Shown here piece after piece: positions 9,031 through 45,947 of a stretch of DNA of 64,000 nt. The position numbers and the translations under genes are program-made. The stretch is taken from positions 448 through 64,447 of the forward strand of contig PAOY01000035.1 of assembly GCA_002710135.1 (NCBI GenBank), in the 5' to 3' direction. Position 1 is the first letter of the stretch. The number at the start of each line of letters is the position of its first letter. This DNA comes from Dehalococcoidia bacterium (GTDB lineage: Bacteria; Chloroflexota; Dehalococcoidia; Lucifugimonadales; Lucifugimonadaceae). Under the pieces are notes generated by a model. The model worked only from the letters and a program-made list of their open reading frames with translations, was not told the DNA's origin and did no database searches.

Positions 9031-9300
9031 ATGGCTAATGTAAAAATCCCCACTCCGTTAAGATCACTAACAAATAATGAAACATCTGTTGAAATAAACG
9101 GCGATAAAATTATAAATATTATTCAAAATCTTGATCAAAAATTTCCAGGTGTTAGTGAAAGAATAATGGAAAATAATGAATTAAAGCATTTCGTCAATAT
9201 TTACATAAATGGAGAAGATATAAGATATTTAGATTCATTAGAAACCAAGGTTAATTCATCTGATGAAATTGCTATAGTTCCTGCTGTAGCTGGTGGCTAA
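9031..9300 (+). CDS. ThiS/MoaD-family ubiquitin-like small sulfur-carrier protein
   Basis: 89 aa, ending in ...IAIVPAVAGG with a C-terminal Gly-Gly. Size and beta-grasp-like pattern match MoaD/CysO-type proteins. Confidence 0.6.
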   Translation: MANVKIPTPLRSLTNNETSVEINGDKIINIIQNLDQKFPGVSERIMENNELKHFVNIYINGEDIRYLDSLETKVNSSDEIAIVPAVAGG

Positions 9301-10400
9301 ATAATTATTTGTCTTAAGGAATCTATTACTATTGATTCCTCAACATCTTGAGAAATTATTGCGTTTCCAATTGAATCTAATAAAACCCATTTCACCTTTC
9401 CATTAGAAACTTTTTTATCCATTTTAATTGCATCTAAAATATTTTTAATATCAATATTTTCTATTTTGACAGGCAAATTATAAGCCTTTAATATATTTTC
9501 TTGCCGATCTACTATTTCCTTATTTATATAACCTTTTCTCATTGAAATATTTGCAGCTGCCATCATTCCAATACTTACAGCCTCACCGTGCAAATATTGG
9601 TTATAATTACTTATTTTTTCTATAGCATGTCCCACTGTGTGACCATAGTTTAATTTAATCCTTTCATCTCCTCTTTCAAATTCATCTTCTGATACTATTT
9701 TTGCTTTAATTGCAACGGATCTTTTTAGTATTTCAGCTGAATAGTCATTGTTTAGTTTATAAATTTTTTCGTGATTTTTTTCAAACTCAAGAAAAAGTTC
9801 TAAATCTTGAATTAGAGAATGCTTAATTGCTTCTGCCCATCCACTAGTTTTTTCTCTATCAGGTAGAGATCCTAAGAAGTCTAAGTCTTCAAAAACAAGC
9901 TTTGGTTGATAAAAAGAACCTACAAGATTTTTTCCTTCTGGTAAATTATAAGCTACTTTTCCTCCTATAGCCGCATCTGTCATCGAAGCAAGTGTTGTTG
10001 GAATTTGTATAAATGGAATCCCTCTAAGATAAGTAGAAGCTGCAAATCCTATGATATCTCCAGCTACCCCTCCTCCCATTGAAATTATAAAGTCTTTTCT
10101 TTCTGCTTTCATATCAGCCAACCAGTTATATATTTTTGAAACAGTTGAATGTGTTTTTAGTTCTTCAGAAAATTCCATTGATAATGAATTTGTTATAAAT
10201 CCTTGAGATTCTAATGACTCATGTAAGCTTTTTGTTTGTTTAGGAAACATAGATTTATCAGCTATCAGGAAGCATCTTTTGTTATTTAGGTTAGCTTTAT
10301 CAAGTTCTGTACCTAGTTCTCCAAGTATAGATTTCCCTACAATTACTCTATAATCTCCTTGAGATGTATTTATAGTTGATGCTAAGTATTTATTTCCCAT
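9297..10400 (-). CDS. aroB: 3-dehydroquinate synthase
   Basis: 367 aa. Motifs GGGVAGDIIGFAASTYLRGIPFIQIPTTL and NYGHTVGHAIE. Follows aroK. Confidence 0.9.
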   Translation of the reverse strand: MGNKYLASTINTSQGDYRVIVGKSILGELGTELDKANLNNKRCFLIADKSMFPKQTKSLHESLESQGFITNSLSMEFSEELKTHSTVSKIYNWLADMKAERKDFIISMGGGVAGDIIGFAASTYLRGIPFIQIPTTLASMTDAAIGGKVAYNLPEGKNLVGSFYQPKLVFEDLDFLGSLPDREKTSGWAEAIKHSLIQDLELFLEFEKNHEKIYKLNNDYSAEILKRSVAIKAKIVSEDEFERGDERIKLNYGHTVGHAIEKISNYNQYLHGEAVSIGMMAAANISMRKGYINKEIVDRQENILKAYNLPVKIENIDIKNILDAIKMDKKVSNGKVKWVLLDSIGNAIISQDVEESIVIDSLRQIII

Positions 10401-10914
10401 AAATTTTTCTTATTTCCATAACTATTTGATTTATATCTTTTTCGTTAGTATTAATCTTTATATTAGCAACATTGTAAACGCTTAGCCTACTATTGAATAA
10501 ATTTATAATATTTTCTTTTTTTACATTAGATCCTATAAGAGGTCTTATTTCACTAGATTTATTTAATCTTTTAAAAATAGAATCAACTGAAGCTTCTAAC
10601 CATATGATAAAACCTTTATCTTGCATAATACTAAGGTTTTTATCAATAGTTGGGATTCCTCCTCCTGTAGCAATAATATTATTTTTTGAAAAATCTATTT
10701 CAGATAAAACTTTCGTTTCAGTTTTTCTGAATTCATCTTCACCATTATCTAAAATTATTTCACCAATGGTTTTACCTTTTTGAATTTCTATGATTCTATC
10801 TGTATCAATGAAATTGTAGCTTAGAGACTTTGCCAAACTTTTTCCTACTGAACTTTTACCAGACCCAGAAAATCCTATCAAAAATAAATTTGATAAATCT
10901 TTTTTATTTTCCAT
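10390..10914 (-). CDS. aroK: shikimate kinase
   Basis: P-loop LIGFSGSGKSS, then DTD and GGG motifs. The track ORF starts at 10944. I prefer the ATG at 10914 (MENKKDL...) because it puts the P-loop at the usual distance and cuts the overlap with aroC to 11 nt. Confidence 0.85.
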   Translation of the reverse strand: MENKKDLSNLFLIGFSGSGKSSVGKSLAKSLSYNFIDTDRIIEIQKGKTIGEIILDNGEDEFRKTETKVLSEIDFSKNNIIATGGGIPTIDKNLSIMQDKGFIIWLEASVDSIFKRLNKSSEIRPLIGSNVKKENIINLFNSRLSVYNVANIKINTNEKDINQIVMEIRKIYGK

Positions 10915-12082
10915 ATTCTTTGAAGCTTTTGATATAAGAAACAAAGTTTCTTTTTATTTCCTGCAAACTGTCTCCTCCAAACTTTTCTAAAACTACTTCA
11001 GTTAATGCAAGAGCTAACATTGCTTCTCCAACTGGACAAGCTCTACTAACTTGGCAAATGTCTGATCTATTGTAAGCAGCTTCAACAACTTCTCCTGAAA
11101 TAATATCTACTGATGGAAGAGGACTGGTCATAGTTGCTATTGGCTTTATAGCGACATTCACGACGATACTATTCCCATTCGACATTCCCCCTTCTATCCC
11201 CCCTGAATGATTAGATATTTGAGAAAAGTTTCTTGGGTCTGATTTATTAGGTTCAATTACATCTTGAACTTCTTTTCCTAATTTTTTGGTATTTTCAAAT
11301 CCATTTCCTATTTCAACTCCTTTGACAGCATTTATAGAAATCATGGCTTGTGCAATTTTCCCATCCAATTTATTATCCCAATGAGTGTGGCTTCCTAGTC
11401 CTAGGGGAACATTTTGTGCAATCACTTGAAAAATACCACCTATGGTAGTTCTTTCTTTTTTTACTTGATCTATAACTTTCTTAAATCTATTGTCTTCTTC
11501 ACTATTTGATGCTCTTACCTCAGATTTTTCTACATAATTCCAATCAATATCATCTAAATTATTTATTTCAGATTCTTCCCAACCTACTGATTTAACTCTA
11601 GATTTTATTTCAACACCTAGTTCTGATAAAAATTTTTTACATATTGATGCAGCTGCTACTCTTGCTGCAGTTTCTCTTGCACTAGCTCTTTCAAGTACAT
11701 TTCTTACATCTTTGTGGTTGAATTTTAAAGTACCAGGAAAGTCTGCATGACCTGGGACTATTTTAGTTTGTAACTTTATATCTTCTTCTGGGTCTACTGG
11801 AGTTATTGACATGGGTGTCGTCCAATTTACCCAGTCCTTGTTTTCTATCCAGAGAGATATTGGAGAACCTAGTGTTTTTCCATGTCTTACACCTGTAAGA
11901 ATCTCCGCTTTATCTTTTTCAATTTTCATTCTTCCGCCTGATCCATATCCTTTTTGCCTTCTAGACATATCTTTTTCAATATAATCTTCGTCAATAGATA
12001 AATTTGAAGGAATTCCTTCAATTATTACGCTCAGGCCTTTACCATGAGATTCTCCAGCTGTTAAGAATCTAAATTTTCCCAT
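10904..12082 (-). CDS. aroC: chorismate synthase
   Basis: 392 aa. Motifs FRFLTAGESHGKGL, GYGSGGRMKIE and ERASARETAARVA. Confidence 0.95.
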   Translation of the reverse strand: MGKFRFLTAGESHGKGLSVIIEGIPSNLSIDEDYIEKDMSRRQKGYGSGGRMKIEKDKAEILTGVRHGKTLGSPISLWIENKDWVNWTTPMSITPVDPEEDIKLQTKIVPGHADFPGTLKFNHKDVRNVLERASARETAARVAAASICKKFLSELGVEIKSRVKSVGWEESEINNLDDIDWNYVEKSEVRASNSEEDNRFKKVIDQVKKERTTIGGIFQVIAQNVPLGLGSHTHWDNKLDGKIAQAMISINAVKGVEIGNGFENTKKLGKEVQDVIEPNKSDPRNFSQISNHSGGIEGGMSNGNSIVVNVAIKPIATMTSPLPSVDIISGEVVEAAYNRSDICQVSRACPVGEAMLALALTEVVLEKFGGDSLQEIKRNFVSYIKSFKEYGK

Positions 12083-17171: not shown

Positions 17172-17957
17172 CTAGTTTAATATTTTTATCAGATCATAGA
17201 GTGTATTTATCACATAATCAGGCTTAATCTTTTTTTCATATGAATCATTTTTTCTGTCGATTAATACATTTTTTATATTGAGTTTTTTCGCTCCGGAGAT
17301 ATCCCCGTCTAAAGTATCTCCAATCATAATTATTTCTGAAAAATCTAGTGATAATTTTTTACAAATAAGTTCATATGGTTCGCTATGAGGTTTACCCTTA
17401 TTACATTCAGAAGAAGTTACTATTTCTGAATTCTCTGATGAAAAAAAACTCAATAGTCCTGAAACACTTATTTTTTTTCTTTGGTGAAATTGCATTCCAT
17501 TTGTAAGTATTCCAAGTTTATAATCTTTTAGTTTAGTAATTGTTGGAATTACATCTTTAAATGACTTAATTCCATCCCACATAAAAAATTTATAATTGTC
17601 TATGATATTTTTTACATTGATTCTACTTTTAGAAATACCTAAATTTTTAATTATCCCTAACCACATTTCATTTTGAGCATCCAAATATATATTATTTAGA
17701 TATTCAGCGATTTCACCGAAACCTCCGCAATCAGCCCATAAAATATCTCTTCCTCCAAATTTTGCATCTAAATACTCAGAAAAATATTTTTTTGACCCAA
17801 TCGTATCTATTGTTTCAATCATGATTTTTAATATTTCAGTATTAGGCATTTTAAAATCTGGGAAGAATGTATTGATAGTTCTTATATAATTGAAATCATA
17901 TAAATCATCGTGAACGGTCAATGTATCATCTAGGTCGAAAACTAAGCCTTTTATCAT
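17172..17957 (-). CDS. HAD-superfamily hydrolase/phosphatase
   Basis: 261 aa. Motif I is VFDLDDTL; the C-terminal motif is GDTLDGDISGA. Has a 4-nt overlap with the upstream dehydrogenase gene. Confidence 0.75.
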   Translation of the reverse strand: MIKGLVFDLDDTLTVHDDLYDFNYIRTINTFFPDFKMPNTEILKIMIETIDTIGSKKYFSEYLDAKFGGRDILWADCGGFGEIAEYLNNIYLDAQNEMWLGIIKNLGISKSRINVKNIIDNYKFFMWDGIKSFKDVIPTITKLKDYKLGILTNGMQFHQRKKISVSGLLSFFSSENSEIVTSSECNKGKPHSEPYELICKKLSLDFSEIIMIGDTLDGDISGAKKLNIKNVLIDRKNDSYEKKIKPDYVINTLYDLIKILN

Positions 17958-19015
17958 AAGTTAGAAATAATCGATTTTGTTACTTCTGATGTAGAGGAAT
18001 TTCCTCCAAGATCAGGAGATATTGATTCACCAAGTTCTAATACCTTTTTAACAGAATTTTCAATAATTTCTGCACTTTCATTTTCTCCTAGATGTTTCAT
18101 CATTATTCCTGCAGTTAGTATTTGAGCCATTGGATTTGCTATACCTTTTCCTGCAATATCAGGTGCTGATCCATGTGTTGGTTCAAACATAGAAGGGCTT
18201 GTTCTGGTAGGGTCTATATTTCCACTAGAAGCTAGACCCATTGAACCTGTGATAATTGCTCCTATATCAGTCAAAATATCACCAAAAAGATTACTAGCAA
18301 CTACAACATCAAAGTTTTCTGGTTTTCTTATAAAATCCATGCATGCAGCATCAATTAATAATGAATCTGTACTAACTTGAGGATAATCTTTTTTTACTTC
18401 TTCAAAAGTTCTATCCCATAAAACCATAGAGTATCCTTGAGCATTTGATTTTGTTATTGAAGTGACATGCATCTTTTTATTTCTTTCGATTGCTAAGTCA
18501 AAAGCATATCTAATTACTCTTTCACAGCCTTTTCTTGTAAAAACTGCACTTTGAACAGCTACTTCATCTGGGAAATTTTGATATTGAAATCCTCCTACGT
18601 TAGCATATTCTCCTTCAGTATTTTCTCTAACAACAACTAGGTCTATATCATATGGTTTCAAGTCCTTGAGGGGAGTATTTACTCCAGGATACAATATTGA
18701 AGGCCTTACACATGCAAATTGATCAAATGCTCTTCTGATTGGAAGGAGTAGGCCGTTAAGTGTAATATGATCTTGAATTTCTGGGTGCCCTACTGCTCCT
18801 AGAAAAATAGCATCAAATGATTCTAATTGTTGAATACCATCTTCTGGCATCATTATTCCATTTTTAAAATAATATTCAGAACTCCATTCAAACTCCTGGA
18901 AATCTAGATTGTAATTTTTGTTATTTTCTAAAGCCTTCAATACTTCAATCGAGCTATTTACAACTTCTACTCCAATACCATCTCCGGGAATTACTGCTAT
19001 TTTGTAAGTTTTCAT
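17954..19015 (-). CDS. tartrate dehydrogenase / D-malate dehydrogenase-type member of the isocitrate/isopropylmalate dehydrogenase family
   Basis: 353 aa. Motifs KIAVIPGDGIGVEV, VRENTEGEY and NLFGDILTDIGAIITGSMGLASSGNIDP. By recall this is closer to TtuC-type than LeuB-type sequences. Confidence 0.65.
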   Translation of the reverse strand: MKTYKIAVIPGDGIGVEVVNSSIEVLKALENNKNYNLDFQEFEWSSEYYFKNGIMMPEDGIQQLESFDAIFLGAVGHPEIQDHITLNGLLLPIRRAFDQFACVRPSILYPGVNTPLKDLKPYDIDLVVVRENTEGEYANVGGFQYQNFPDEVAVQSAVFTRKGCERVIRYAFDLAIERNKKMHVTSITKSNAQGYSMVLWDRTFEEVKKDYPQVSTDSLLIDAACMDFIRKPENFDVVVASNLFGDILTDIGAIITGSMGLASSGNIDPTRTSPSMFEPTHGSAPDIAGKGIANPMAQILTAGIMMKHLGENESAEIIENSVKKVLELGESISPDLGGNSSTSEVTKSIISNL

Positions 19016-19023
19016 TTTATCTC

Positions 19024-19905
19024 CTATTGTTTTTCTATTATTTGAATTATCCCTGCCATATCATCCATTTCTTTACCATCTTTTTTTAGTTCATCATATA
19101 ATTTTTTTGAAGTTTTTGTTAAAGGTAAGTTTACCGACAAATCTTTTCCTAGTTGATCAATTATTGAAATATCTTTATGAATATTTCTTGCAGGAACTGA
19201 TGATCCCTCAAATTCTCTATCTCTTATTATTGGAGCACATCTTTCTAACATTCTTGAAAAGCCAAAACTTACTTGTAATATTTCCATAGCTGAATCGATA
19301 TCGACATTTGATGCGTTAGTTAAGGCTAGTGCTTCAGCTGCAGCTGTTGTATGTACAGCTGTTAATAATTGATTTATTAGCTTCATTGAAGTTCCTGCTC
19401 CATTTTCACCCATATGTTTTACAGTCGTTCCCATCATTTTGAAATAATCTAAAGCTTTGTTGTAAGGTTCTATATTTCCTCCAACCATAATAGATAATGT
19501 TCCATCTTTAGCACCAATGGGTCCTCCAGAGATGGGAGCATCAAGAAATTCTGATCCTTTTTCTTTACAAAATTCAAAACATTTTTTAGAGGTTGCTAAA
19601 TCTACAGTTGAGTGGTCTATAATAATTTTTTTTTCAGAAGTTTTAGATAATAAGCCCTCATTGCCTGTTATTATTTCTATAGAAGTCTGAGTATCAGGTA
19701 AACATGTTAGTATAATGTCACTTTTTTCTGCTAGATCTTGTAAAGAGTATGCGCCTTTTGCTCCTCTTTTTTCCATAGAAGATATTTTTTCCTTATTTCT
19801 TGTATAAACTGTAAGATTTGCATTTTTTTCAAGAAGATTATTTGCCATTCCTTGCCCCATATTTCCCAGTCCAACAAAACCAATTCTTTTCATAATTTTC
19901 CTCAT
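19024..19905 (-). CDS. NAD(P)-dependent beta-hydroxyacid dehydrogenase (3-hydroxyisobutyrate / tartronate-semialdehyde reductase family)
   Basis: 293 aa. Rossmann motif IGFVGLGNMGQGMA, DAPISGGPIGA, and the catalytic Lys region GAGTSMKLINQ. Confidence 0.8.
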   Translation of the reverse strand: MRKIMKRIGFVGLGNMGQGMANNLLEKNANLTVYTRNKEKISSMEKRGAKGAYSLQDLAEKSDIILTCLPDTQTSIEIITGNEGLLSKTSEKKIIIDHSTVDLATSKKCFEFCKEKGSEFLDAPISGGPIGAKDGTLSIMVGGNIEPYNKALDYFKMMGTTVKHMGENGAGTSMKLINQLLTAVHTTAAAEALALTNASNVDIDSAMEILQVSFGFSRMLERCAPIIRDREFEGSSVPARNIHKDISIIDQLGKDLSVNLPLTKTSKKLYDELKKDGKEMDDMAGIIQIIEKQ

Positions 19906-20843
19906 TCTAAATTTATTTTTATATTTTCTATTAATTTATTTATACTTTTCTTTATAATTTCATGAGAATTTGCTGCATTATGAGGAGTTAGTATGACATT
20001 ATGTAAGCTTTTCAGCTGGTTATTTTTAGATAATGGCTCTTGCTCAAAAACATCAAGTGCTGCACCAGCTATTTTCCCACTTACTAAGGAATTATAAAGA
20101 GCCTGCTCGTTTATTAATTTACCCCTTGCAGTATTTATTATTATTGCGTTTGATTTCATCCTTGAAAATTCTTCAGAACTTATTAAGTATTCAGTTTCTT
20201 CAACTATTCTTGTATGAAGAGTTACTACATCAGAATTTTCTAGTAAAAATTCTAAATCAGAAACTTTTCCGAATTCTTGAAAACTTAATGTTCTGACATT
20301 ATCCATTCTGATTACTGGAGTAACAATTATTTTCATCCCCAAATTAGAGCCGATTCTTGCAACCTTTTCCCCAATTGCACCTGCTCCTACAATACCTAAC
20401 GTTTTTCCTTCAAAAAGATCAACTTCGATTGATGGCCATTCATTATTTCTAACCCTTCTGTCTAACTCTGGTATTTTTTTTAATAGAGATATCATTAATC
20501 CAATTGAGTGTTCTGCAACTGAGTTAGTTAAGATATCAGGGATATTAGTAACTGCTATTTTGTTTCTGTTTGCAGCATCTAAATCTATATGATCTAGTGC
20601 TATACCAAATACAGCTATATGCCTTAAGTTTGGTAGATTTTCTATAATGTTATTATTTATTTTTGTAGTAGCTTTAGTTATAACAGCTGTATGAGCTTCC
20701 CTCAGCCTTGATAACACTTCTCTTGATCCGGAAGGTAGCGATCTGAAAACTTCTATTTCATGATTAATTTTTAGATCACCAAATAATGAAGGATCATATG
20801 AAACTACTTGAGGTTCGTCATCAACTATTACTATTTTGGACAT
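19902..20843 (-). CDS. D-isomer-specific 2-hydroxyacid dehydrogenase (glycerate dehydrogenase/hydroxypyruvate reductase-like)
   Basis: 313 aa. Motifs LGIVGAGAIGEKVA, INTARGKLI, LDVFEQEP and LTPHNA. Confidence 0.8.
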   Translation of the reverse strand: MSKIVIVDDEPQVVSYDPSLFGDLKINHEIEVFRSLPSGSREVLSRLREAHTAVITKATTKINNNIIENLPNLRHIAVFGIALDHIDLDAANRNKIAVTNIPDILTNSVAEHSIGLMISLLKKIPELDRRVRNNEWPSIEVDLFEGKTLGIVGAGAIGEKVARIGSNLGMKIIVTPVIRMDNVRTLSFQEFGKVSDLEFLLENSDVVTLHTRIVEETEYLISSEEFSRMKSNAIIINTARGKLINEQALYNSLVSGKIAGAALDVFEQEPLSKNNQLKSLHNVILTPHNAANSHEIIKKSINKLIENIKINLE

Positions 20844-20908
20844 TATAAAAAAAACTCCATTGAAAATTCTATTATAATGTTCTTATCATCTATAAAAAAC
20901 ATTATTTC

Positions 20909-21241
20909 ATGTCAGCATATAAAATTTTGTACTGGAAAGAAATTCCTACACAACTTAAATATAAAGATAATGATGGAAATGAAGGATCATTCCCTCTGAG
21001 TCTCTTTTTTCAGACAGCAATAGATGCTGTTGCAATGCATGATGGATCTATAGAAAGTGGAGCTTATTTAGATGCTTGGGATTGGGGTCCAGAAATACAG
21101 ACTACTCTCGCTCCAGAAGAAATTATAAAACAATTTGATGATAATATTCCCAAGTCATTTATTAACAAAATAAAATCTTTAGAAGACGAAGGGAATAGAT
21201 CAGGTTTGCCTGGATCAATAGACTCATGGTTCAAAATTTAA
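20909..21241 (+). CDS. small conserved protein, resembles the 'virulence factor' family (PF13769, from memory)
   Basis: 110 aa. The N-terminus KILYWKEIPTQLKY...FQTAIDAVAM resembles the YWRDIPAQV...AIDRAAM pattern I recall for this family. First gene of the methyltransferase operon; overlaps the next gene by 16 nt. Confidence 0.45.
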   Translation: MSAYKILYWKEIPTQLKYKDNDGNEGSFPLSLFFQTAIDAVAMHDGSIESGAYLDAWDWGPEIQTTLAPEEIIKQFDDNIPKSFINKIKSLEDEGNRSGLPGSIDSWFKI

Positions 21242-22149
21242 AAGATAGTTCAAAAAAAATCTTAGATGATATTAATAAAGGTAAAATATTTTTACTTGAT
21301 GGAGCAACTGGTACTTTTCTTCAAAACAATGGTCTTGAAGCAGGCGGATGCCCAGAGCTAATGAATATTGAGTTTCCTGAAGTTATTTCAAAAATGGCTC
21401 ATAGCTATTTTTCTAATGGAAGCGATATTGTTCTTACAAATACTTTTGGAGGAAATTACTACCGATTGAAACATTATGGATTAGAAGAGAGAGTTATTGA
21501 AATAAATAAAATAGCTTCAGAAATTGCAAAAAAAGCTGCTTCGGACTATCAAGACAAATATGTTTTTGGTTCAATAGGTCCAACCGGTGAATTTCTAAAA
21601 CCTTTGGGAAATGTATCTGAAGAAGAAATGTATGAATGTCTCTATAATCAAATGAAAGGTTTATATGATGGCGGAGTTGATGCTTTTGTTATAGAAACTC
21701 AGATCGCGACAGAAGAAACTTTACTAGCATTAAGGGTTGCAAAAGAAAATTTTAATCTTTTGAATATAGTTTCATTTGTTTATGACAAGGGACCAAAAGG
21801 TTACTTTACAATGTTTGGCCTTTCACCTTCAGAAAGTGTTGATTTGTTTTTTAAGTCAGGAGCGGATATTGTCGGAGCAAATTGTGGCAATGGATCAGAA
21901 AAAATAGTAGAAATTTCTAAAGAAATTAGATCTAAAACAAAGAATCCTGTTTTGGTTCAAGCAAATGCAGGTATACCAATTATAAAGAAAAACGATATAA
22001 TTTATCCAGAATCACCAGAAGATATGGTTAAAGAATATAAAAAGTTAATAGAAATGAATATAAATATTTTAGGTGGATGTTGTGGAACAAATGAAGAGCA
22101 TATTAATGCCTTTTCAAAAATAATAAGGAGTCACAATGAAAGTATCTGA
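21226..22149 (+). CDS. stand-alone homocysteine S-methyltransferase domain protein (MetH N-terminal module / PF02574 type), Zn-dependent
   Basis: 307 aa. Motifs LLDGATGT and TNTFGG. Zn-ligand Cys in VGANCGNG and the Cys-Cys pair in LGGCCGTNEEHI (TGT TGT at 22078-22083). Confidence 0.8.
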   Translation: MVQNLKDSSKKILDDINKGKIFLLDGATGTFLQNNGLEAGGCPELMNIEFPEVISKMAHSYFSNGSDIVLTNTFGGNYYRLKHYGLEERVIEINKIASEIAKKAASDYQDKYVFGSIGPTGEFLKPLGNVSEEEMYECLYNQMKGLYDGGVDAFVIETQIATEETLLALRVAKENFNLLNIVSFVYDKGPKGYFTMFGLSPSESVDLFFKSGADIVGANCGNGSEKIVEISKEIRSKTKNPVLVQANAGIPIIKKNDIIYPESPEDMVKEYKKLIEMNINILGGCCGTNEEHINAFSKIIRSHNESI

Positions 22150-22780
22150 TGTAAAAATCAAATTTGGAAAATGTCTTGAACTTGTATCCATGGATCCTAA
22201 TTTTCATAACATTAGTGTAGGACTGTTTATCAAAAAAGATATCTTAACTGTATGGTCTTACAGTAAAAAAGAAGGAGTAGAGTCTAGATTAAATCAAATA
22301 AGAGACAAAATGGTTGAATTCGGAGGATTAAATCACTTAGATGAAGACTTTAAAATGACTGTTCCTAAAGGCGCTCTTATCGAAAGACCATTGAAATTTT
22401 TGTTTAGTCAATGTGTGGAAATGTCACCCGAAAAAAAATCTGACAAAGGTATTATTACTGCCAAAGACAATAAAACTAAACTGACCTTTAAAGTTAGTGG
22501 GTCTCAACAACAAGATAAATATATATATACTGTATCCGCTGAGGGTGAACATGAAAAACCAGGTCTTAGAATACGTGCTGTTGTTGGAGGTTTCATAAAA
22601 TATGGAGAATGCATTAGAAATGATGTAGATTCCTTTCATTTCCCAGATAACAATGCACATGAAGAATACGTAAGAGTATTACTTCCTTATGCAAGAAATG
22701 TAAGTGCTGTTGAACAGATGTTAGAAGCATCTGATCAAGCTGGACAAATGACTACTCAAAGCTTAGGGTTTTCACAATAA
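22136..22780 (+). CDS. hypothetical protein embedded in the corrinoid methyltransferase operon
   Basis: 214 aa. AAGGAG Shine-Dalgarno 7 nt upstream of the ATG at 22136. 14-nt overlap with the preceding gene and 10-nt gap to the next. No recognisable motif. Confidence 0.6.
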   Translation: MKVSDVKIKFGKCLELVSMDPNFHNISVGLFIKKDILTVWSYSKKEGVESRLNQIRDKMVEFGGLNHLDEDFKMTVPKGALIERPLKFLFSQCVEMSPEKKSDKGIITAKDNKTKLTFKVSGSQQQDKYIYTVSAEGEHEKPGLRIRAVVGGFIKYGECIRNDVDSFHFPDNNAHEEYVRVLLPYARNVSAVEQMLEASDQAGQMTTQSLGFSQ

Positions 22781-22790
22781 AGGGGAAAAA

Positions 22791-23822
22791 ATGATAAAAC
22801 AAATGACAAAAAAAGAAAGAGTTTTAGCAGCCCTAAATAGATTAGAAGTTGATAGACCTCCGGTTGCGAACCCAACTTCTGTTGCTACTGTAGAAATGAT
22901 GGATTTAGTAGATGCTCCATTTCCAGAAGCATGTAGATCGGCAGAATTAAATGCAAGGCTTGCAGCGACAGAAATTACTGAATTCGATTTTGATGCAATT
23001 GCTCCATATTTTTCAATTATTCAAGAATCTAGTGCAATTGGATGTGAAATGCAGTGGGAGCAAAAAGATAACTGGCCTACTGTTAGAATGAGTAATCCTA
23101 TTTGGAAAACATCAAGTGATATAAAAGTTCCATCAGATTTCTTAAATCATCCTGATGTTAAGGTTATAACTGATTCTATTAGAATCTTGAAAAAGGAGTT
23201 TGGAGATGATGTCCCAATTATTGGAAAAACAATGGGGCCATGGACTTTAGCTTACCATGTTTTTGGTGTTGAGACATTCCTATTGGGATCAGTAGATAAT
23301 CCTGATGAAACTATTAAGTCTCTGGAAAAACTTCAAGAATTTACATACTTATTTGGAGAGGCTCAAGTTGATGCTGGCGCAGATGTTCTAACTATACCAG
23401 ACCATGCCACAGGAGATTTAGTATCAGGTCAATACTATCAAAAATTTTTACAGGATATTCATACTGAAATGGCACAAAGATTTACAGTCCCTCTAATACT
23501 TCATATTTGCGGTAGAACAGTAGATAGAATGCCTTATATTGCTGAAACTGGCATGCATGCATTTCATTTTGATTCCAAGAATTCACCTCAAGAAGCAATG
23601 GATGCAGTAAATAATAAAATTGCTCTTGTAGGAAATATTAATAATCCAGAAACTTTATACTCAAAGGAAGCAGACGATGTTAAGAAAGAAGTTTTTGAGT
23701 GCTTAAATGCTGGAGTCCAGCTTATTGCTCCAGAATGTGCTATTCCATTAAAAACAAAAGCTGAAAATCTTGTAGCAATAAATGAAGGTATTACTGACTG
23801 GCTAGCGGAAACAAATTCGTAG
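22791..23822 (+). CDS. URO-D-family (MtaA/MtbA/CmuA-type) corrinoid methyltransferase, Zn-dependent
   Basis: 343 aa. N-terminus MTKKERVLAALNRLEVDRPPVANP is typical of MtaA-like proteins. The H-x-C...C Zn signature is present (LILHICGR and IAPECAIP). AGGGG Shine-Dalgarno motif upstream. Confidence 0.75.
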   Translation: MIKQMTKKERVLAALNRLEVDRPPVANPTSVATVEMMDLVDAPFPEACRSAELNARLAATEITEFDFDAIAPYFSIIQESSAIGCEMQWEQKDNWPTVRMSNPIWKTSSDIKVPSDFLNHPDVKVITDSIRILKKEFGDDVPIIGKTMGPWTLAYHVFGVETFLLGSVDNPDETIKSLEKLQEFTYLFGEAQVDAGADVLTIPDHATGDLVSGQYYQKFLQDIHTEMAQRFTVPLILHICGRTVDRMPYIAETGMHAFHFDSKNSPQEAMDAVNNKIALVGNINNPETLYSKEADDVKKEVFECLNAGVQLIAPECAIPLKTKAENLVAINEGITDWLAETNS

Positions 23823-23874
23823 ATTTGATAAAATAAAAATATAATTAACATATTCATTAAAAATAGGACTATTT

Positions 23875-24618
23875 ATGTTTGATCATGAAGGACTTTCAAA
23901 AGAATTTGAGTGGGTAACTAAAGAAAGTGAAAAAAAACATATTGGTGGGGCTATATCAAATACCTCCTACGAAATGCAAGAGATTTCATATGCTCTAATT
24001 ACTGGAGATAATAATGCAGTTGATGAGTTAACAAAAAAAGCTCTAGATAATGGATCTACAGCAAACGAAATACTTGATGATGGATTATTAAATGGTATGG
24101 CAATAGTAGGTGTTAAGTTTAGAGATAATGTTATATTTGTTCCCGAAGTATTGATATCTGCAAGAGCGATGAAAGCTGGTATGACTCATATCGAACCAAT
24201 TTTATCTGAATCTGGAATTGAACCTCAAGGAATAGTTCTTATGGGTACAGTTAAGGGTGATTTACATGATATTGGAAAAAATTTGTGTATCATGATGCTA
24301 AGAGGAGCAGGTTTTACTGTTCATGATTTAGGAGTAGATACATCTCCAGAAGACTTTGTTGATGGTTTTGAAGAACATGAACCTGACGTAATTGGAATGT
24401 CAGCGCTTTTGACAACAACAATGCCTAATATGGGAAGGACTATCCAATATTTTGAAGATATTGGATTAAGAGAAGAAGTTAGAATGATGGTTGGCGGAGC
24501 TCCAGTTACTCAAGAATTTGCTGATGAAATGGGTGCAGATGGATATGGAGAAAGTGCCGTTGATGCAGTTGATAAAGCAAAAGAGCTTGTAGAGCTTCTT
24601 AAAGATTTAAAGAGTTAG
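23875..24618 (+). CDS. corrinoid (cobalamin-binding) methyl-carrier protein, B12 cap plus Rossmann-like B12 domain
   Basis: 247 aa. D-x-H-x-x-G motif is GDLHDIGKN (D129, H131, G134; nt 24259-24276). Also S-x-L (GMSALLTTT) and G-G (MVGGAPV). Confidence 0.9.
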   Translation: MFDHEGLSKEFEWVTKESEKKHIGGAISNTSYEMQEISYALITGDNNAVDELTKKALDNGSTANEILDDGLLNGMAIVGVKFRDNVIFVPEVLISARAMKAGMTHIEPILSESGIEPQGIVLMGTVKGDLHDIGKNLCIMMLRGAGFTVHDLGVDTSPEDFVDGFEEHEPDVIGMSALLTTTMPNMGRTIQYFEDIGLREEVRMMVGGAPVTQEFADEMGADGYGESAVDAVDKAKELVELLKDLKS

Positions 24619-24624
24619 ATTTAT

Positions 24625-24903
24625 ATGACTTATAAAAAGTCTAATTCTAATAATAAAAAGCAATTAAAAAAGAGTTTAGATAACTTATATAATATTTTTC
24701 AGGACATATCATTTCACGCTGATGAAATAAGTAAAACTAGATGCCCATACAAAAATGCTAAAAATTTATGTACTGCAACCTTCTCTTGCAGGAATCAGCA
24801 TTTTACTGCTAAGGGATTAGATTTACCGATTTGTGTTGGTTCACATAAGTTAGATTACAGATTTGCATGGGAAGTGGATAAACCTATTAAAAAAAATGAG
24901 TGA
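24625..24903 (+). CDS. small Cys-containing hypothetical protein
   Basis: 92 aa. Basic N-terminus, with four Cys spaced C-x8-C-x5-C-x13-C (RCPYKNAKNLCTATFSC...PICVG). Its TGA stop overlaps the ATG of the next gene (ATGAGTGA). Confidence 0.5.
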   Translation: MTYKKSNSNNKKQLKKSLDNLYNIFQDISFHADEISKTRCPYKNAKNLCTATFSCRNQHFTAKGLDLPICVGSHKLDYRFAWEVDKPIKKNE

Positions 24904-26527
24904 AAAAAAATTTATTAATGAAAAAAAATCTATAGAATTATCAAAAAATAGATCTCTTTTCGAATATGCAGATCAAATAAAAATGAGAATTCCAACATCA
25001 TGTGGAAGATTTGGAGATTGTCACGAATGTATAGTTGAGGTATCTGAAGGTTATGATATCTTATCCAAGCCAACTGAACACGAAAACTTCCTTAAAGAAC
25101 CATTTAGATTAGCATGTCAGGCTAACACTGTTTCGAAAGACTCAAACTTAAAATTTAGTCCTAGAAAGAGAGATAGAAAAATTTTGACAAATTTTTCTCA
25201 AGAATCTTCATATGATGTAGATCATAATTATATCTATAAAGACAATACTCTAATTTATAAATCTGAAAATAAAGAAACAGTATTATCAAAATCAAAAAAA
25301 ATCTATGGATTAGCTATAGATGTAGGAACTACCACTGTAGCAATTAATTTAGTTGATATAAATATCGGTAAAGTTCTTATGACTTCATCTTTTGAAAACC
25401 CTCAAATTTTTGGAGGTTCAGATGTTATGAACCGTATTTCTTATGACTCATCTAGCTATAAAGGAGAACTGTCAAAAGCAATAATTTCTTCAGTAAATTT
25501 TGAAATTGGTGAATTTGTTAAGAAATTAAAGATAAGAAGAAATGAAATTGTTGAAGTTACTATAGTAGGGAATTCTACAATGAGAGATTTATTTTTCAAT
25601 CTAGATGTAGAACCTATCGGTGTAAAGCCTTATAAATCAATAATCGAAACTGATTATTTAGATTCTAAAATCTCAAGTACAGAATTAATCACTTCAGCAA
25701 AAGATCTAAACTTAAGAATTAATTCTGAAGCATTAATTTATAGTCCTCCATTAATTGCATCTCATATAGGTTCAGATGTTTCTGCTGGTCTCATAGCTAC
25801 AGATTTTTTTGAAAATAATAATACAAAAATGTTAATAGATATTGGTACAAATACTGAAGTTGTTTTGGGAACACCTCAAAAAATGCTTGCGGCGTCATGC
25901 CCTGCAGGGCCTGCCTTTGAAGGAGGAGAGATAACATATGGTATGCCTGGTTATGAGGGTGCTATAGAGAAAGTTGATTTTGAAAGTAATAATTTTACAT
26001 ACCAAACTATTGGGAATTCAAAGCCATTAGGACTTTGTGGATCTGGATTAATTGATTTTCTTTCAATTTTAGTTGAAAACAAAATTATGAATCCTTTGGG
26101 TAAATTCGAACAAGAAAAAGATTATATTTTTATTGATAATGATGAATCTATAAACTTGTCAAGGAGAGATGTATCTAGCCTTGCACAAGAAAAAGCAGCA
26201 AACGTATGCGGACAAGCATTAGTTATTAAAGATTTTGGAACAAATATGGATGATATAGATAATGTTTATCTTGCTGGAGGATTTGCAAACTATATTGATA
26301 TTGAAAATGCTAAAAATATAGGCTTCATACTTAATTTCCCTATAGAAAAAATAAAAAAAATAGGCAATACAGCTTTAGAAGGTGCAACAAAATTATTATT
26401 ATCAAATAAACTTAGAAAAAATCTTGTTGATTATGTGAAAAAAATAGATCACTTAGAACTTGAAACAAAACCAGAGTTTTTCGATTATTTTGTTGAAGGT
26501 TGTCAATTTAAAAAGATTTCAGTATAA
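24896..26527 (+). CDS. RACo/RamA-type ATP-dependent reductive activase of corrinoid proteins (2Fe-2S ferredoxin plus ASKHA/DUF4445 domains)
   Basis: N-terminal plant-type 2Fe-2S pattern SCGRFGDCHEC...LACQA. ASKHA phosphate motifs GLAIDVGTTTVA and IDIGTNTEV, plus LCGSGLID. The track ORF starts at 24863. I prefer the ATG at 24896 (MSEKKF...), which is translationally coupled to the upstream stop. Confidence 0.8.
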   Translation: MSEKKFINEKKSIELSKNRSLFEYADQIKMRIPTSCGRFGDCHECIVEVSEGYDILSKPTEHENFLKEPFRLACQANTVSKDSNLKFSPRKRDRKILTNFSQESSYDVDHNYIYKDNTLIYKSENKETVLSKSKKIYGLAIDVGTTTVAINLVDINIGKVLMTSSFENPQIFGGSDVMNRISYDSSSYKGELSKAIISSVNFEIGEFVKKLKIRRNEIVEVTIVGNSTMRDLFFNLDVEPIGVKPYKSIIETDYLDSKISSTELITSAKDLNLRINSEALIYSPPLIASHIGSDVSAGLIATDFFENNNTKMLIDIGTNTEVVLGTPQKMLAASCPAGPAFEGGEITYGMPGYEGAIEKVDFESNNFTYQTIGNSKPLGLCGSGLIDFLSILVENKIMNPLGKFEQEKDYIFIDNDESINLSRRDVSSLAQEKAANVCGQALVIKDFGTNMDDIDNVYLAGGFANYIDIENAKNIGFILNFPIEKIKKIGNTALEGATKLLLSNKLRKNLVDYVKKIDHLELETKPEFFDYFVEGCQFKKISV

Positions 26528-26535
26528 AGGTAACT

Positions 26536-27528
26536 ATGAAATATAAAGCAGTAATTACAGATTATGTATGGCCTAATCTTGATATAGAATCTAAGATCTT
26601 AAATGATAACGATATTGAGGTCGTTGATTGTAATAACAAAAGTGATAAAGAACTCAAGAAAGAATTGGAAGATGCAGATGCATTGCTTTTTTGTTTTAGA
26701 GAAATATCTACAGATTTGCTAGAATCAGCTACTAAATGCAAAGTTGCGTCAAGATATGGAATTGGTGTAGATAATATTGATATAAATAAATGTACTGAAT
26801 TAGGTATAGTTGTTACAAATATACCTGATTATTGTTTAGAAGAAGTTTCAGATCATGCTATTGCAATGATACTTAGTTTGAATAGAAGAATAAATGATCA
26901 TTCCAATATGGTAAAAAATGGTGGTTGGAACGACTTAGACTTGAATATCCCTGTACAAAGACTGAGTGAATCAACTTTAGGGATTGTTGGTTTTGGACGA
27001 ATAGGAAAAACCATAGCTTCAAGGGTTTCAGCGCTAGGTATAAGATCGATAGCTTATGATCCATTATTAGAAACTGGAAAAAAAGTAGATAATGTAGAAA
27101 TTGTTTCATTTGAAAATTTATTGAGAAATTCAGATTTTGTTACAATTCATGTGCCATTAAATGAACACACTCATCACCTTTTTTCAGAAAAAGAATTTAA
27201 TCAAATGAAAAATAACTCTATTATAGTTAATTGTGCAAGAGGTGGATTAATTGATGAAAAAGCTGCCTCAGAAGCTATTTCAAGAGGTCAAATTGGAGGG
27301 ATTGGATTAGATGTTATTGAAGACACTTCTAAAACACCTACTAGTCCATTATTTAATAATCAAAACGTAATAATAACTCCTCATACAGCTTTTTTTTCTA
27401 AAGCTTCAGGTGAAGAGCTTCAAAAAAGAACAGCAGAGGAAATAGTCAGAGTTATTAATAATAAGAAACCTGAGAACTTTATAAACCCTGAGGTCTTAGG
27501 AAATACACGTTCTAATTTAATTGTCTAA
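26536..27528 (+). CDS. D-isomer-specific 2-hydroxyacid dehydrogenase (phosphoglycerate dehydrogenase/CtBP-like)
   Basis: 330 aa. Motifs LGIVGFGRIGKTIA, VNCARGGLID, LDVIE and ITPHTAF. Only 8 nt after the RACo gene, with an AAGGT Shine-Dalgarno motif. Confidence 0.75.
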   Translation: MKYKAVITDYVWPNLDIESKILNDNDIEVVDCNNKSDKELKKELEDADALLFCFREISTDLLESATKCKVASRYGIGVDNIDINKCTELGIVVTNIPDYCLEEVSDHAIAMILSLNRRINDHSNMVKNGGWNDLDLNIPVQRLSESTLGIVGFGRIGKTIASRVSALGIRSIAYDPLLETGKKVDNVEIVSFENLLRNSDFVTIHVPLNEHTHHLFSEKEFNQMKNNSIIVNCARGGLIDEKAASEAISRGQIGGIGLDVIEDTSKTPTSPLFNNQNVIITPHTAFFSKASGEELQKRTAEEIVRVINNKKPENFINPEVLGNTRSNLIV

Positions 27529-36966: not shown

Positions 36967-37592
36967 AATCCCTCGATAAACTATTAAACTCAAATTTATC
37001 TGAAATTGGCTTTTTTAATAAATCTAATAAATCCTCAGATAAATTGAATATTTTAGGAGTTTCTAAAAGTCAATCTGATTTAGAAAAATATAGTTGTGAT
37101 GCATACATTTCTACAGATACTGTAAAGAAATCAATAAAAAGTATTGGTAAATATTTTGATTCTAATGACACTGAAAAGTCTATTGAAAATTTTGATTTTA
37201 TAATTTTAGAAAATACAAAAGAAGTAAAAATAAATTTATTGATTTATGAAATCCCAATTTGTATTCAAATAAATCATCAAGATTTATTATCTGAACAAAG
37301 ATTAGCTACTTTTGATTCGTTTGATTTTGATTTTTTCATTTATAAAATTGAAAAGGATTTTATATTTAATTTTCAAGAAGTAATTACAATTAAGGAAAGG
37401 TTAAATTCAATAAGATCTAATTGGTTTATTTACTTAGATAATAATAATTTGACAGATGAAGACTTACAATATATTTATGATCTTGGATTTGTAGGCTTAA
37501 TTGTCGATTTAGATAAACTTAAAATGAAAGATTTCAATAAAATTAAGGCAAGTATAAAAAAAATAGAAGAAAAGAAAAATGGGAAAATTTGA
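36963..37592 (+). CDS. hypothetical protein
   Basis: 209 aa. TTG start overlapping the PAC2 stop (TTGA). Overlaps the downstream tyrA-like gene by 14 nt. No family recognised. Confidence 0.5.
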   Translation: MKSLDKLLNSNLSEIGFFNKSNKSSDKLNILGVSKSQSDLEKYSCDAYISTDTVKKSIKSIGKYFDSNDTEKSIENFDFIILENTKEVKINLLIYEIPICIQINHQDLLSEQRLATFDSFDFDFFIYKIEKDFIFNFQEVITIKERLNSIRSNWFIYLDNNNLTDEDLQYIYDLGFVGLIVDLDKLKMKDFNKIKASIKKIEEKKNGKI

Positions 37593-38565
37593 TAATACAA
37601 ACATATCTATATTTGGATTAGGAAATCTAGGATACAACATTTCTCAAAAATTAATGGAGCAGAATAACAATATAAACCTTCGAGGATTTGATATAAACAG
37701 AGAAAAATCAAGTATTGCTAAACATTCTAAAGTTATAACAAAAGAAATGAAGAGTTATATAGATTCTATACATGAAAGTGATTTAATTATAATTTGTACT
37801 CCTACCTCTTCTACCTATGAGATATTTGAATCATTGCAAAATTCCATAACTGAAAATACTTTAATATTTGATATATGTTCTTCTAAAAGAGCAATAAATG
37901 AATGGTCAAATGAGCTTTTACCTAATAACCAAATAATAGGTCTCTATCCATTTATCAATCATAATTCACTCTTAAATAATAACTGGGGTGTTGTATCTTA
38001 CAAAAATACAAAATCACAAGTCACTGATATGGCTAACACTTTTATACATGAAATGGAAGGATTAGTTGTAAACCTAGATATCTCTGAACACGATAGTTTT
38101 ATTGCATTGACTGAAACAATGCCAATGATACTTACTTCAAATCTACTAAATTTATCAAATAATAATTCTTCTTGGAAAGAACTGTACAAATATTATAATA
38201 ATGAGGATTTTAAATTATTTTCTAATCCTTTAGATAATGATCCCGTAAAAATATTTTCTTCGATTTCAACTAATAATGATTTACTTCTTGATTGGATAAA
38301 AATTTATATAAATGAGTTAGTTAAATTTCAGAAATTATTAGAAAACAACTCTGAATCTGACATCGCAGATTTAGTCAAAAAGACTTGGGAGGATAGATTG
38401 AAATTAACAAATAATATAGATCCTAGTCTTGATTCAGGAGAAAATATAATACCGTCATCTTCAGAAAATATTTTATCTTTATTCATAGGATCTAGAGCTG
38501 CCAGATTTTTTACAAAATCAAAAGAAATTGATAAAGATAAATATGGATTTGAAAAAAGGATTTGA
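37579..38565 (+). CDS. prephenate/arogenate dehydrogenase-like protein (divergent)
   Basis: 328 aa. Rossmann motif ISIFGLGNLGYNIS. FDICSSKR resembles the D-x-x-S-x-K motif. The usual G-x-HP-x-x-G His motif reads IGLYPFINH. Its position directly upstream of aroA supports the call. Confidence 0.5.
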   Translation: MGKFDNTNISIFGLGNLGYNISQKLMEQNNNINLRGFDINREKSSIAKHSKVITKEMKSYIDSIHESDLIIICTPTSSTYEIFESLQNSITENTLIFDICSSKRAINEWSNELLPNNQIIGLYPFINHNSLLNNNWGVVSYKNTKSQVTDMANTFIHEMEGLVVNLDISEHDSFIALTETMPMILTSNLLNLSNNNSSWKELYKYYNNEDFKLFSNPLDNDPVKIFSSISTNNDLLLDWIKIYINELVKFQKLLENNSESDIADLVKKTWEDRLKLTNNIDPSLDSGENIIPSSSENILSLFIGSRAARFFTKSKEIDKDKYGFEKRI

Positions 38566-38568
38566 TAA

Positions 38569-41561: not shown

Positions 41562-41569
41562 GAGTAAAA

Positions 41570-42954: not shown

Positions 42955-43047
42955 TGGCGGGAGAGAAAGGGAATCGAACCCTCCTTGATAAATAATACCA
43001 ATCATAGTTTTGAAGACTAGAAAATTCACCAGAATATACTCACTCCC
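42955..43047 (-). tRNA. selC: selenocysteine tRNA (anticodon UCA), 93 nt with encoded CCA
   Basis: Hand-folded minus-strand sequence: GGGAGTGA GT ATATTC TGGT GAATTT TCTAGT CTTCAAA ACTATG A TTGGTA TTATT TATCAA G GAGGG TTCGATT CCCTT TCTCTCCC G CCA.
- Acceptor stem: 8 bp with one U-U mismatch.
- T stem: 5 bp with a TTCGATT loop, giving the bacterial 8/5 form.
- D stem: 6 bp (one mismatch) with a 4-nt loop.
- Anticodon stem: 6 bp, with loop CU-UCA-AA.
- Variable arm: 6 bp.
- Discriminator: G. Confidence 0.85.
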
Positions 43048-45943: not shown

Positions 45944-45947
45944 TTTA

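Follow-up and report, generated by a model that had tools for sequence, protein, structure and literature searches.

The 64,000-nt stretch of Dehalococcoidia contig PAOY01000035.1 analysed here (the window) contains, at positions 20909–26527, seven tightly packed open reading frames on the + strand (ORF1 to ORF7, numbered in order along this segment) that encode a corrinoid protein, two different zinc methyltransferases, a reductive activase and three smaller proteins. That this operon moves a methyl group from a non-folate donor onto its corrinoid protein, and from there to homocysteine to give methionine, is a proposition that we judge to be evenly balanced. It would then be a corrinoid 'methyl hub' composed of a methyltransferase I (MT I), a corrinoid protein, a methyltransferase II (MT II) and an activase, with the folate-dependent MT II replaced by a MetH-type homocysteine methyltransferase. 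A broader proposal, which we hold a little less firmly, is that the SAR202/Dehalococcoidia possess an undescribed corrinoid system in which an MtaA-type enzyme and an orphan protein harvest an abundant non-folate marine methyl compound, the exits for the methyl group having been exchanged over evolution to lead either directly to homocysteine or into the folate one-carbon pool, and the orphan and a four-Cys protein being obligatory components. A full-text literature search found no description of this gene set, and the initial annotation of this DNA likewise knew of no characterized system with this composition.

Operon organization

ORF1 (20909–21241) encodes a 110-residue protein with a PF13769 domain and overlaps by 16 nt (21226–21241) with ORF2 (21226–22149), which encodes a stand-alone, MetH-type homocysteine-binding Zn methyltransferase of 307 residues (PF02574). 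ORF2 in turn overlaps by 14 nt (22136–22149) with ORF3 (22136–22780), the gene for a 214-residue protein of an orphan family that serves as a marker of the whole cluster family. These are followed by ORF4 (22791–23822; 343 residues), a Zn methyltransferase of the MtaA/CmuA family within the uroporphyrinogen decarboxylase (URO-D) superfamily (PF01208), by ORF5 (23875–24618; 247 residues), a corrinoid (cobamide-binding) methyl-carrier protein (PF02607 plus PF02310), and by ORF6 (24625–24903; 92 residues), a conserved four-Cys protein, the intervening gaps being 10, 52 and 6 nt. ORF7 (24896–26527) encodes an ATP-dependent reductive activase of the RACo/RamA type (2Fe–2S plus ASKHA). Its start is probably the ATG at 24896, which gives an 8 nt overlap with ORF6, since the alternative TTG at 24863 adds 11 N-terminal residues that are not conserved, and homologues are 541–543 residues long. 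A D-2-hydroxyacid dehydrogenase gene (26536–27528, +; PF02826 plus PF00389) begins 8 nt past ORF7, and the arrangement indicates a real operon of eight genes when this one is counted. The coordinates, strand, overlaps and gaps of the seven ORFs are borne out as first described, and the domains then assigned to the enzymes have all proved right when judged by Pfam and NCBIfam profile scores and by motif conservation.

Methyltransferases and the orphan protein

The motifs discussed in this and the following section are 97–100 % conserved overall across about 80 orthologous clusters. ORF2 scores 202 bits in a Pfam profile search with PF02574, and among solved structures it comes closest to the homocysteine domain of Thermotoga maritima MetH (1q7m, 174 bits), with betaine–homocysteine methyltransferase (BHMT) far behind at 60 bits. 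The three Zn ligands (C220, C285 and C286), the DGAxG motif and E157–T158 are conserved without exception, so that the profile, the structural match and the Cys3 site all agree with the original assignment to the homocysteine-type Zn methyltransferases. We propose that ORF2 is a methyl-corrinoid:homocysteine methyltransferase that forms the exit module of the system. A direct, BHMT-type betaine:homocysteine methyltransferase was also considered and is less likely, given the 60 bit BHMT match and a score of 217.5 with the bacterial betaine–homocysteine S-methyltransferase model NF005718, for which the cut-off is 338; ORF2 may nevertheless have direct sulfonium:homocysteine activity.

ORF4 scores 220 bits against PF01208 and passes the NCBIfam subfamily models for the MtaA/CmuA group (TIGR01463, 241.5 against a cut-off of 235.4; PRK06252, 262.8 against 244), and it lies below the equivalog cut-offs of MtaA_Meth (236.7 vs 400) and MtbA (198.6 vs 600). 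Its best solved relative is MtaA (4ay7, 173 bits), with the LHICG and APxC motifs aligned (APGC in MtaA), whereas uroporphyrinogen decarboxylase structures reach at most 58.6 bits. The Zn site formed by H238, C240 and C316 is conserved at close to 100 %, and 145 of the 343 positions are at least 97 % conserved; with ORF5, in which this is true of 112 of 247 positions, ORF4 is thus among the most constrained components of the cluster. Relatives at 42 % identity are fusions of URO-D and B12-binding domains, the architecture of CmuA and of MtsD, MtsF and MtsH, and the sole match when a plasmid collection was searched with ORF4 was an Acetoanaerobium protein at 27 % identity. The possibility of a true uroporphyrinogen decarboxylase was rejected on a hemE score of 83.5 bits against a cut-off of 303, and the earlier designation as an MtaA-type methyltransferase therefore stands. 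The role that we propose for ORF4 is that of a methyl-X:cob(I)amide methyltransferase, the loader of the corrinoid protein.

ORF3 has no match in Pfam or NCBIfam, and a scan of 44 homologues at E≤10 gave no consistent Pfam family. Its homologues number 118, all of them unnamed, and those with a named source come from metagenome-assembled genomes of SAR202, Dehalococcoidia or Chloroflexota. An AlphaFold2 model (predicted local distance difference test score, pLDDT, 88; predicted template modelling score, pTM, 0.82) has two beta–beta–beta–alpha repeats and a helical hairpin, followed by a C-terminal tail, GQM-T--LGF, that is invariant in sequence and disordered in the model. Searches of the PDB with this model gave fold matches to Arp2/3 subunits and PUR repeats at E-values of 0.27 or worse, which were rejected as meaningless. 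Because the orphan gene always adjoins the URO-D gene in the cluster family, we propose that ORF3 is an adaptor, partner or specificity subunit of ORF4. A different and very improbable reading makes ORF3 itself a new substrate-activating MT I, with the URO-D protein and the homocysteine methyltransferase as alternative MT II enzymes. Its invariable presence, its translational coupling, its want of any known fold relative and four invariant residues that could bind a metal (Cys13, Glu15, Asp20 and Asp111) would all suit such an enzyme, although at 214 residues it is small, its duplicated fold is unlike that of the TIM-barrel MT I enzymes, it carries no recognizable catalytic motif, and its conserved disordered tail is suggestive of docking or of an adaptor; the universal presence of the URO-D gene would also be harder to explain. 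We note that a distant homologue of the orphan (tblastn, 22 % identity, E-value 1.6e-10) is followed directly by a homologue of the four-Cys protein in locus L091 (Ga0066388_100519123, 718–1613), and the pair may thus occur outside the canonical cluster.

Corrinoid protein and activation machinery

The nearest NCBIfam models to ORF5, MtgC and pyl_corrinoid, are both under cut-off, and its cobamide-binding motifs (D129-x-H131-x-x-G134, S176-x-L178 and G207–G208) are at least 97 % conserved. ORF7 is composed of Fer2, RACo_middle and RACo_C_ter domains, and its four 2Fe–2S ligands (C47, C53, C56 and C85) are fully conserved.

The PF13769 assignment of ORF1 is confirmed by a score of 31.4 bits against a cut-off of 25, although the protein now appears to be no unrelated extra. 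On plasmid NZ_CP091854.1 of the alphaproteobacterium Terrarubrum flagellatum (L085, 7688–11268), a PF13769 domain is fused N-terminally to an activase in a 760-residue protein of PF13769-Fer2-RACo_linker-RACo_middle-RACo_C architecture, encoded directly after a B12-binding protein and a DUF1638 protein. This fusion places ORF1 in the activation machinery, and ORF1 is therefore likely to be a detached accessory module of the RACo-type activase. The name 'Virulence factor' that Pfam gives to PF13769 is probably a misnomer for a domain that belongs to corrinoid reductive activation.

ORF6 matches no Pfam or NCBIfam family, but its four cysteines (C40, C49, C55 and C70) are present in all 74 sequences compared, and its gene always lies between those for the corrinoid protein and the RACo-type activase. 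We infer a role as a metal-binding accessory in activation; an AlphaFold2 model built with nine homologues was too poor (pLDDT 60) and was not used.

Conservation and cluster architectures

Searched for in one representative genome per species, the orphan turned up in 387 of them, and the 80 that were listed belong to the Chloroflexota in all but two cases, both 'Candidatus Entotheonella'. Eighty loci were retrieved, the window proteins were compared with them by tblastn, and PF00809, the pterin-binding module, was looked for within about 9 kb. The order PF13769, homocysteine methyltransferase, orphan, URO-D, corrinoid protein, four-Cys protein, RACo-type activase and 2-hydroxyacid dehydrogenase is preserved in the 67 loci with adequate flanking sequence, down to 43–76 % identity and over a range of 28–66 % G+C, so the check on gene neighbourhoods that had been called for finds the same arrangement in dozens of species. 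By component, the URO-D gene is present in 71/71 loci with adequate flank, PF13769 in 67/71, the four-Cys gene in 65/71 and a same-strand 2-hydroxyacid dehydrogenase in 48/71, clusters of types B and C (described below) included; at least 56 of the 71 hold URO-D, corrinoid protein and RACo-type activase in one cluster. The identities of the individual components to those of the window co-vary (r 0.84–0.95), and the cluster genes therefore seem to evolve as a unit. The arrangement is to all appearances conserved rather than accidental, and the pattern indicates great age and strong purifying selection.

Selfish or mobile genes have entered several otherwise intact clusters (L001, 11533–12861; L002, 8788–9709; L003, 8692–10428; L092, 6336–7667). 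They comprise insertion sequence transposases, a DUF433/DUF5615 toxin–antitoxin-like pair and a GmrSD-type nuclease, and they lie mostly between the orphan and URO-D genes or ahead of the pterin or RACo gene; the gap between orphan and URO-D exceeds 150 nt in 23/87 loci.

Three architectures can be distinguished by the machinery that would accept the methyl group. Type A, that of the window, has the homocysteine methyltransferase with the URO-D gene and no PF00809 gene within about 9 kb, and accounts for 63 of the 67 orphan-selected loci with adequate flank, a count biased towards this type, the 80 loci surveyed out of 387 genomes being those nearest to the window's own orphan. Type B has both the homocysteine methyltransferase and PF00809 (L003/L004, L072, L074, L088, L089, L090, L092 and L093). 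In L003/L004, L072 and L074 the PF00809 gene (346 residues) sits between the URO-D and corrinoid protein genes, and L093 has the exact gene order of the window with PF00809 inserted. Type C, found in L086, L087 and L094, has MetV (DUF5981) and methylenetetrahydrofolate reductase (MTHFR) genes upstream, together with PF00809, and has no homocysteine methyltransferase; its orphan homologue has 225 residues and 44–45 % identity, and its URO-D protein is 60 % identical to ORF4. When metagenomes were scanned with the type C orphan, two loci were found, one of type B arrangement and one a fragment. Some type B clusters have tandem URO-D paralogues (L089, 5716–7910 and 10406–12301; L092, 3926–6053), and L089 carries, with its second URO-D gene, a YitJ-like fusion of PF02574 and MTHFR; these features suggest a further diversification of donors and exits.

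In the window itself, tblastn with a SAR202 PF00809 protein (E≤10, six frames) returned just a 21-residue noise match, and Pfam found no PF00809 domain in the window ORFs submitted to it, those of the operon included, in keeping with the initial annotation, which had reported no pterin module in either. The PF00809 protein of L003 has 2576 homologues at E<1e-20. All eight stand-alone SAR202 PF00809 genes whose context was examined (seven and that of L003) lie inside versions of the same cluster, and among the best 120 of the 2576 homologues none could be placed on a complete chromosome bearing a window-type cluster, which is weak evidence.

Direction of methyl transfer and alternative readings

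The three types share an invariant set of genes, namely PF13769, orphan, URO-D, corrinoid protein, four-Cys protein and RACo-type activase, usually with the 2-hydroxyacid dehydrogenase, and what varies is the methyl acceptor machinery, the homocysteine methyltransferase in some and PF00809, with or without MTHFR, in others. Since URO-D orthologues are 60–76 % identical across types A, B and C, they would have one common substrate. If the URO-D protein does the same job throughout, then its assignment as donor-side loader is the sole one that makes all three architectures self-contained, and this modularity of the exits favours a donor-side role for the URO-D protein acting with the orphan. The earlier idea that the MtaA-type enzyme loads the methyl group is to this extent favoured, although the direction of transfer remains a matter of interpretation.

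Several points weigh against methyl transfer from a non-folate donor to homocysteine as we propose it. The direction of transfer cannot be read from the family membership of ORF4, as MtaA proper is an acceptor-side enzyme that passes the methyl group of methyl-Co to a thiol. The neighbouring dehydrogenases point to no specific substrate, the nearest solved relatives of the co-transcribed enzyme having nearly equal scores (see below). PF00809 is found inside a substantial minority of the orthologous clusters, which indicates that the corrinoid protein is folate-coupled in some lineages, and genomes of the window type may encode a PF00809 protein in trans or a full-length MetH. Finally, type C is known from three genomes only, and the sampling bias noted above inflates the share of type A.

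One alternative, which we consider quite unlikely, takes the URO-D protein to be acceptor-side, as in the methanogen MtaA, and to methylate a thiol or selenol (or sulfide or selenide). The methyl group would come from methyltetrahydrofolate (methyl-THF) in types B and C, and in the window's type either from a donor module encoded in trans or from methionine by reversal of ORF2. In its favour, ORF4 scores above the cut-offs of the MtaA subfamily models and has retained the His-Cys-Cys Zn site that is typical of enzymes methylating thiols. Type C, with its MetV–MTHFR pair, PF00809, corrinoid protein and URO-D protein, is self-consistent in that direction, and ClMlp2 can transfer the methyl group of methylcobalamin to selenide and sulfide in vitro (PMC10418091). 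Yet the dominant, window-type cluster would on this reading contain a pair of acceptor enzymes but encode no donor enzyme in cis, and the substitution of the homocysteine methyltransferase by a PF00809/MTHFR pair would be left unexplained. We also know of no precedent for the demethylation of methionine by a MetH-type homocysteine domain.

The strongest rival, which we regard as somewhat unlikely, is an ordinary split cobalamin-dependent methionine synthase that receives its methyl group from methyl-THF through a pterin protein encoded in trans, the URO-D protein and the orphan having a side function. ORF2, ORF5, ORF7 and ORF1 correspond to the pieces of MetH as found in Phaeobacter, and ORF2 is closest to a genuine MetH homocysteine domain. 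The three-part MetH of Phaeobacter inhibens, which is genetically proven, has its homocysteine methyltransferase and corrinoid protein in one operon, with the genes for the pterin piece and for the RamA-like activase located elsewhere; genetic data also show that split MetH needs an activase of the RamA type (PMC5764234). The gene content of an operon therefore does not settle the matter by itself, and the contention that split MetH systems keep their pterin module has had to be given up as an argument from the genes of the operon. In related SAR202 genomes, in addition, PF00809 lies in the cluster, sometimes with MTHFR or the YitJ-like fusion, which makes up a full metF–metH-like methionine branch. 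However, the genes that do not vary are URO-D and the orphan, whereas the homocysteine methyltransferase is missing from type C and PF00809 from the great majority of the loci counted above; the URO-D and corrinoid proteins, moreover, are the components under the greatest constraint. The invariably in-cluster position of the eight sampled PF00809 genes also speaks against a partner in trans, as does, weakly, the failure to place any of the best 120 homologues on a window-type chromosome. The term 'folate-bypassing', which had been applied to the system, can accordingly be kept for the window-type variant alone, and then provided that no partner is encoded in trans; it does not extend to the lineages with PF00809 in the cluster.

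Proposed pathway and significance

Under our preferred reading, transfer from a non-folate donor to homocysteine, ORF7 and ORF1, possibly with ORF6, would bring the cobalt of ORF5 from Co(II) to Co(I) at the expense of ATP and a low-potential electron. ORF4, probably together with ORF3, would then move a methyl group to Co(I) from the donor, for which an S- or Se-methyl compound, a sulfonium or a methyl halide are candidates. ORF2 would bind homocysteine at its Cys3–Zn site and take the methyl group from CH3–Co(III), forming methionine. In the related SAR202 genomes PF00809 would unload the corrinoid protein besides or instead of the homocysteine branch, and the resulting methyl-THF would pass to MetV–MTHFR and be oxidized by MTHFR. 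The probable substrate of the co-transcribed 2-hydroxyacid dehydrogenase is either the donor's carbon skeleton or the demethylated product.

The SAR202/Dehalococcoidia belong to the most abundant bacterial groups in the dark ocean, and if this pathway operates, hundreds of species of an abundant ocean lineage would have a MetH-type route to methionine that uses an environmental methyl donor and not methyl-folate. It would tie SAR202 to the turnover of a methylated sulfur, selenium or halide compound, about whose consumers in oxic and deep seawater little is known, and it would give a function to two uncharacterized families, the orphan and the four-Cys protein, as well as to PF13769. The methyl acceptor in corrinoid systems would prove to be an exchangeable module, and annotation pipelines that call a 'missing methionine synthase' or a 'split MetH' in such genomes would need revision. 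Should split MetH with a trans-encoded pterin protein be correct instead, the clusters would document a very widespread elaboration of it.

Neighbouring genes and genomic context

The 65 nt divergent intergenic region 5′ of ORF1 contains a promoter-like site (TTGAAA-18-TATCAT, 20860–20889, +, 10/12 matches), although promoter-like and terminator sites near the operon are no more numerous than expected from shuffled sequence. A search for riboswitches and regulatory RNAs found only a tRNA-Sec, and no riboswitch.

On the far side of this region lies a divergent operon on the − strand (17172–20843) that encodes a 2-hydroxyacid dehydrogenase (19902–20843), a beta-hydroxyacid dehydrogenase of the tartronate-semialdehyde-reductase type (19024–19905), a tartrate dehydrogenase (17954–19015; TIGR02089, 482.7 against a cut-off of 470.4) and a HAD hydrolase (17172–17957). 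In many species of Dehalococcoidia this operon keeps its place beside the methyltransferase cluster, even where the orphan is down to 45–55 % identity, and the two may be functionally linked. Family profiles thus confirm the presence of 2-hydroxyacid dehydrogenases on both flanks, as initially noted. The conserved synteny lends some weight to the suggestion that these enzymes act on the demethylated product, but no substrate can be assigned: the nearest PDB relatives of the 26536–27528 enzyme are CtBP (177 bits), PGDH (171) and glyoxylate reductase (165). Human CtBP prefers 4-methylthio-2-oxobutyrate, from which we draw no conclusion for this dehydrogenase. Together, the dehydrogenase and the divergent operon give a hint of a hydroxy-acid or oxo-acid skeleton.

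The window as a whole has a G+C content of about 29 % and carries housekeeping genes such as alaS, mutL, shikimate-pathway genes and menD. Genes for menaquinone synthesis (menD and isochorismate synthase), aroB, aroC, aroA and prephenate dehydrogenase are distributed over 386–3271 (−), 9297–12082 (−) and 37579–39849 (+), and these biosynthetic genes are consistent with the chromosome of a free-living, biosynthetically competent organism and not with a mobile element. A glycerate kinase gene lies beside that for an enzyme scoring 546 bits with the L-2-hydroxyglutarate oxidase equivalog model (cut-off 299) at 40425–42781 (+), and with the tartrate dehydrogenase operon this pair points to hydroxy-acid catabolism in the genome. 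The genome uses selenocysteine, to judge by the tRNA-Sec (42955–43047, −), which lies next to genes at 43388–47651 (−) for a NuoF-like subunit and for a formate-dehydrogenase-like molybdopterin oxidoreductase with Fer2_4, Molybdopterin and Fe4S4 domains.

Comparison with known corrinoid systems

The window operon resembles the Phaeobacter split MetH (Price et al. 2018) in having a stand-alone PF02574 protein, a PF02607 plus PF02310 protein and an activase of the Fer2 plus DUF4445/RACo type in place of the S-adenosylmethionine-dependent reactivation domain, and in both the operon is without a pterin piece. The homocysteine domain, the cobalamin cap with its Rossmann DxHxxG motif and a means of reactivation are thus all present, whereas PF00809 is found in neither the operon nor the window. 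In Phaeobacter, on the other hand, a PF00809 partner is proven, DUF1638 is present and a URO-D/MtaA enzyme is missing, while the window system includes as integral parts a highly conserved enzyme of the MtaA/CmuA type, the orphan and the four-Cys protein, and most of the orthologous clusters have no PF00809.

Demethylase systems built of MT I, corrinoid protein, MT II and activating enzyme (Odm/Vdm/Mtv, CdmBCA and CmuA/CmuB/MetF2) offer a second parallel, with a donor-side methyltransferase of the UroD superfamily, a corrinoid protein and a RACo-type activase; their MT I enzymes (CdmB, CmuA and the O-demethylases) act donor-side on methyl halides and aryl methyl ethers (PMC13222342). The relatives of types B and C share a pterin-binding MT II with these demethylases, and type C also has MTHFR, as in the cmu pathway. 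The window's MT II is instead a MetH-type homocysteine methyltransferase and no pterin-binding MT II accompanies it. ORF4, too, differs from the O-demethylase and CdmB clades in belonging to the MtaA/CmuA clade with its His-Cys-Cys Zn site, and the orphan, four-Cys and PF13769 proteins are additional.

Kountz and Balskus associate that Zn site with S- or Se-methyl chemistry and propose that mlp clusters remove methyl groups from methyl-S/Se compounds, methionine being a possible destination of the methyl group (PMC10418091). Type 1 mlp clusters, however, combine two or more Mlps (Mlp2 and Mlp3), are found in obligate anaerobes, for the most part Firmicutes, and contain no PF02574 gene (PMC10418091). 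The window cluster has a single Mlp-like URO-D gene (a few relatives, L089 and L092, have two), an explicit homocysteine methyltransferase and the orphan, and belongs to the SAR202/Dehalococcoidia.

Methionine formation from homocysteine with a methyl-corrinoid protein as immediate donor is known from MesA and MesB (Price et al. 2021, PMC7857596), although MesA to MesD have a MetE-like catalytic domain where ORF2 has the MetH-like PF02574, and the source of methyl groups for MesA and MesB is MtrA or CoFeSP, of methanogenesis or the Wood–Ljungdahl pathway, and not a dedicated MtaA-type loader. For the loading step the closest parallels are MtsA and MtpA/MtpC, in which an MtaA-family Zn enzyme moves the methyl group of a thioether, dimethyl sulfide or methylmercaptopropionate (MMPA), to a corrinoid protein; MtpA is an MMPA:cob(I)alamin methyltransferase of the MtaA family acting donor-side, so that such a reaction is feasible (10.1101/548461). 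Their acceptor is coenzyme M and their context methanogenesis, whereas in the window the acceptor enzyme is a homocysteine methyltransferase and the organism a bacterium. By analogy with all of these, the system would work like a demethylase in which MT II has been swapped for a MetH-type domain or, equivalently, like a split MetH in which an MtaA-type loader replaces the pterin module.

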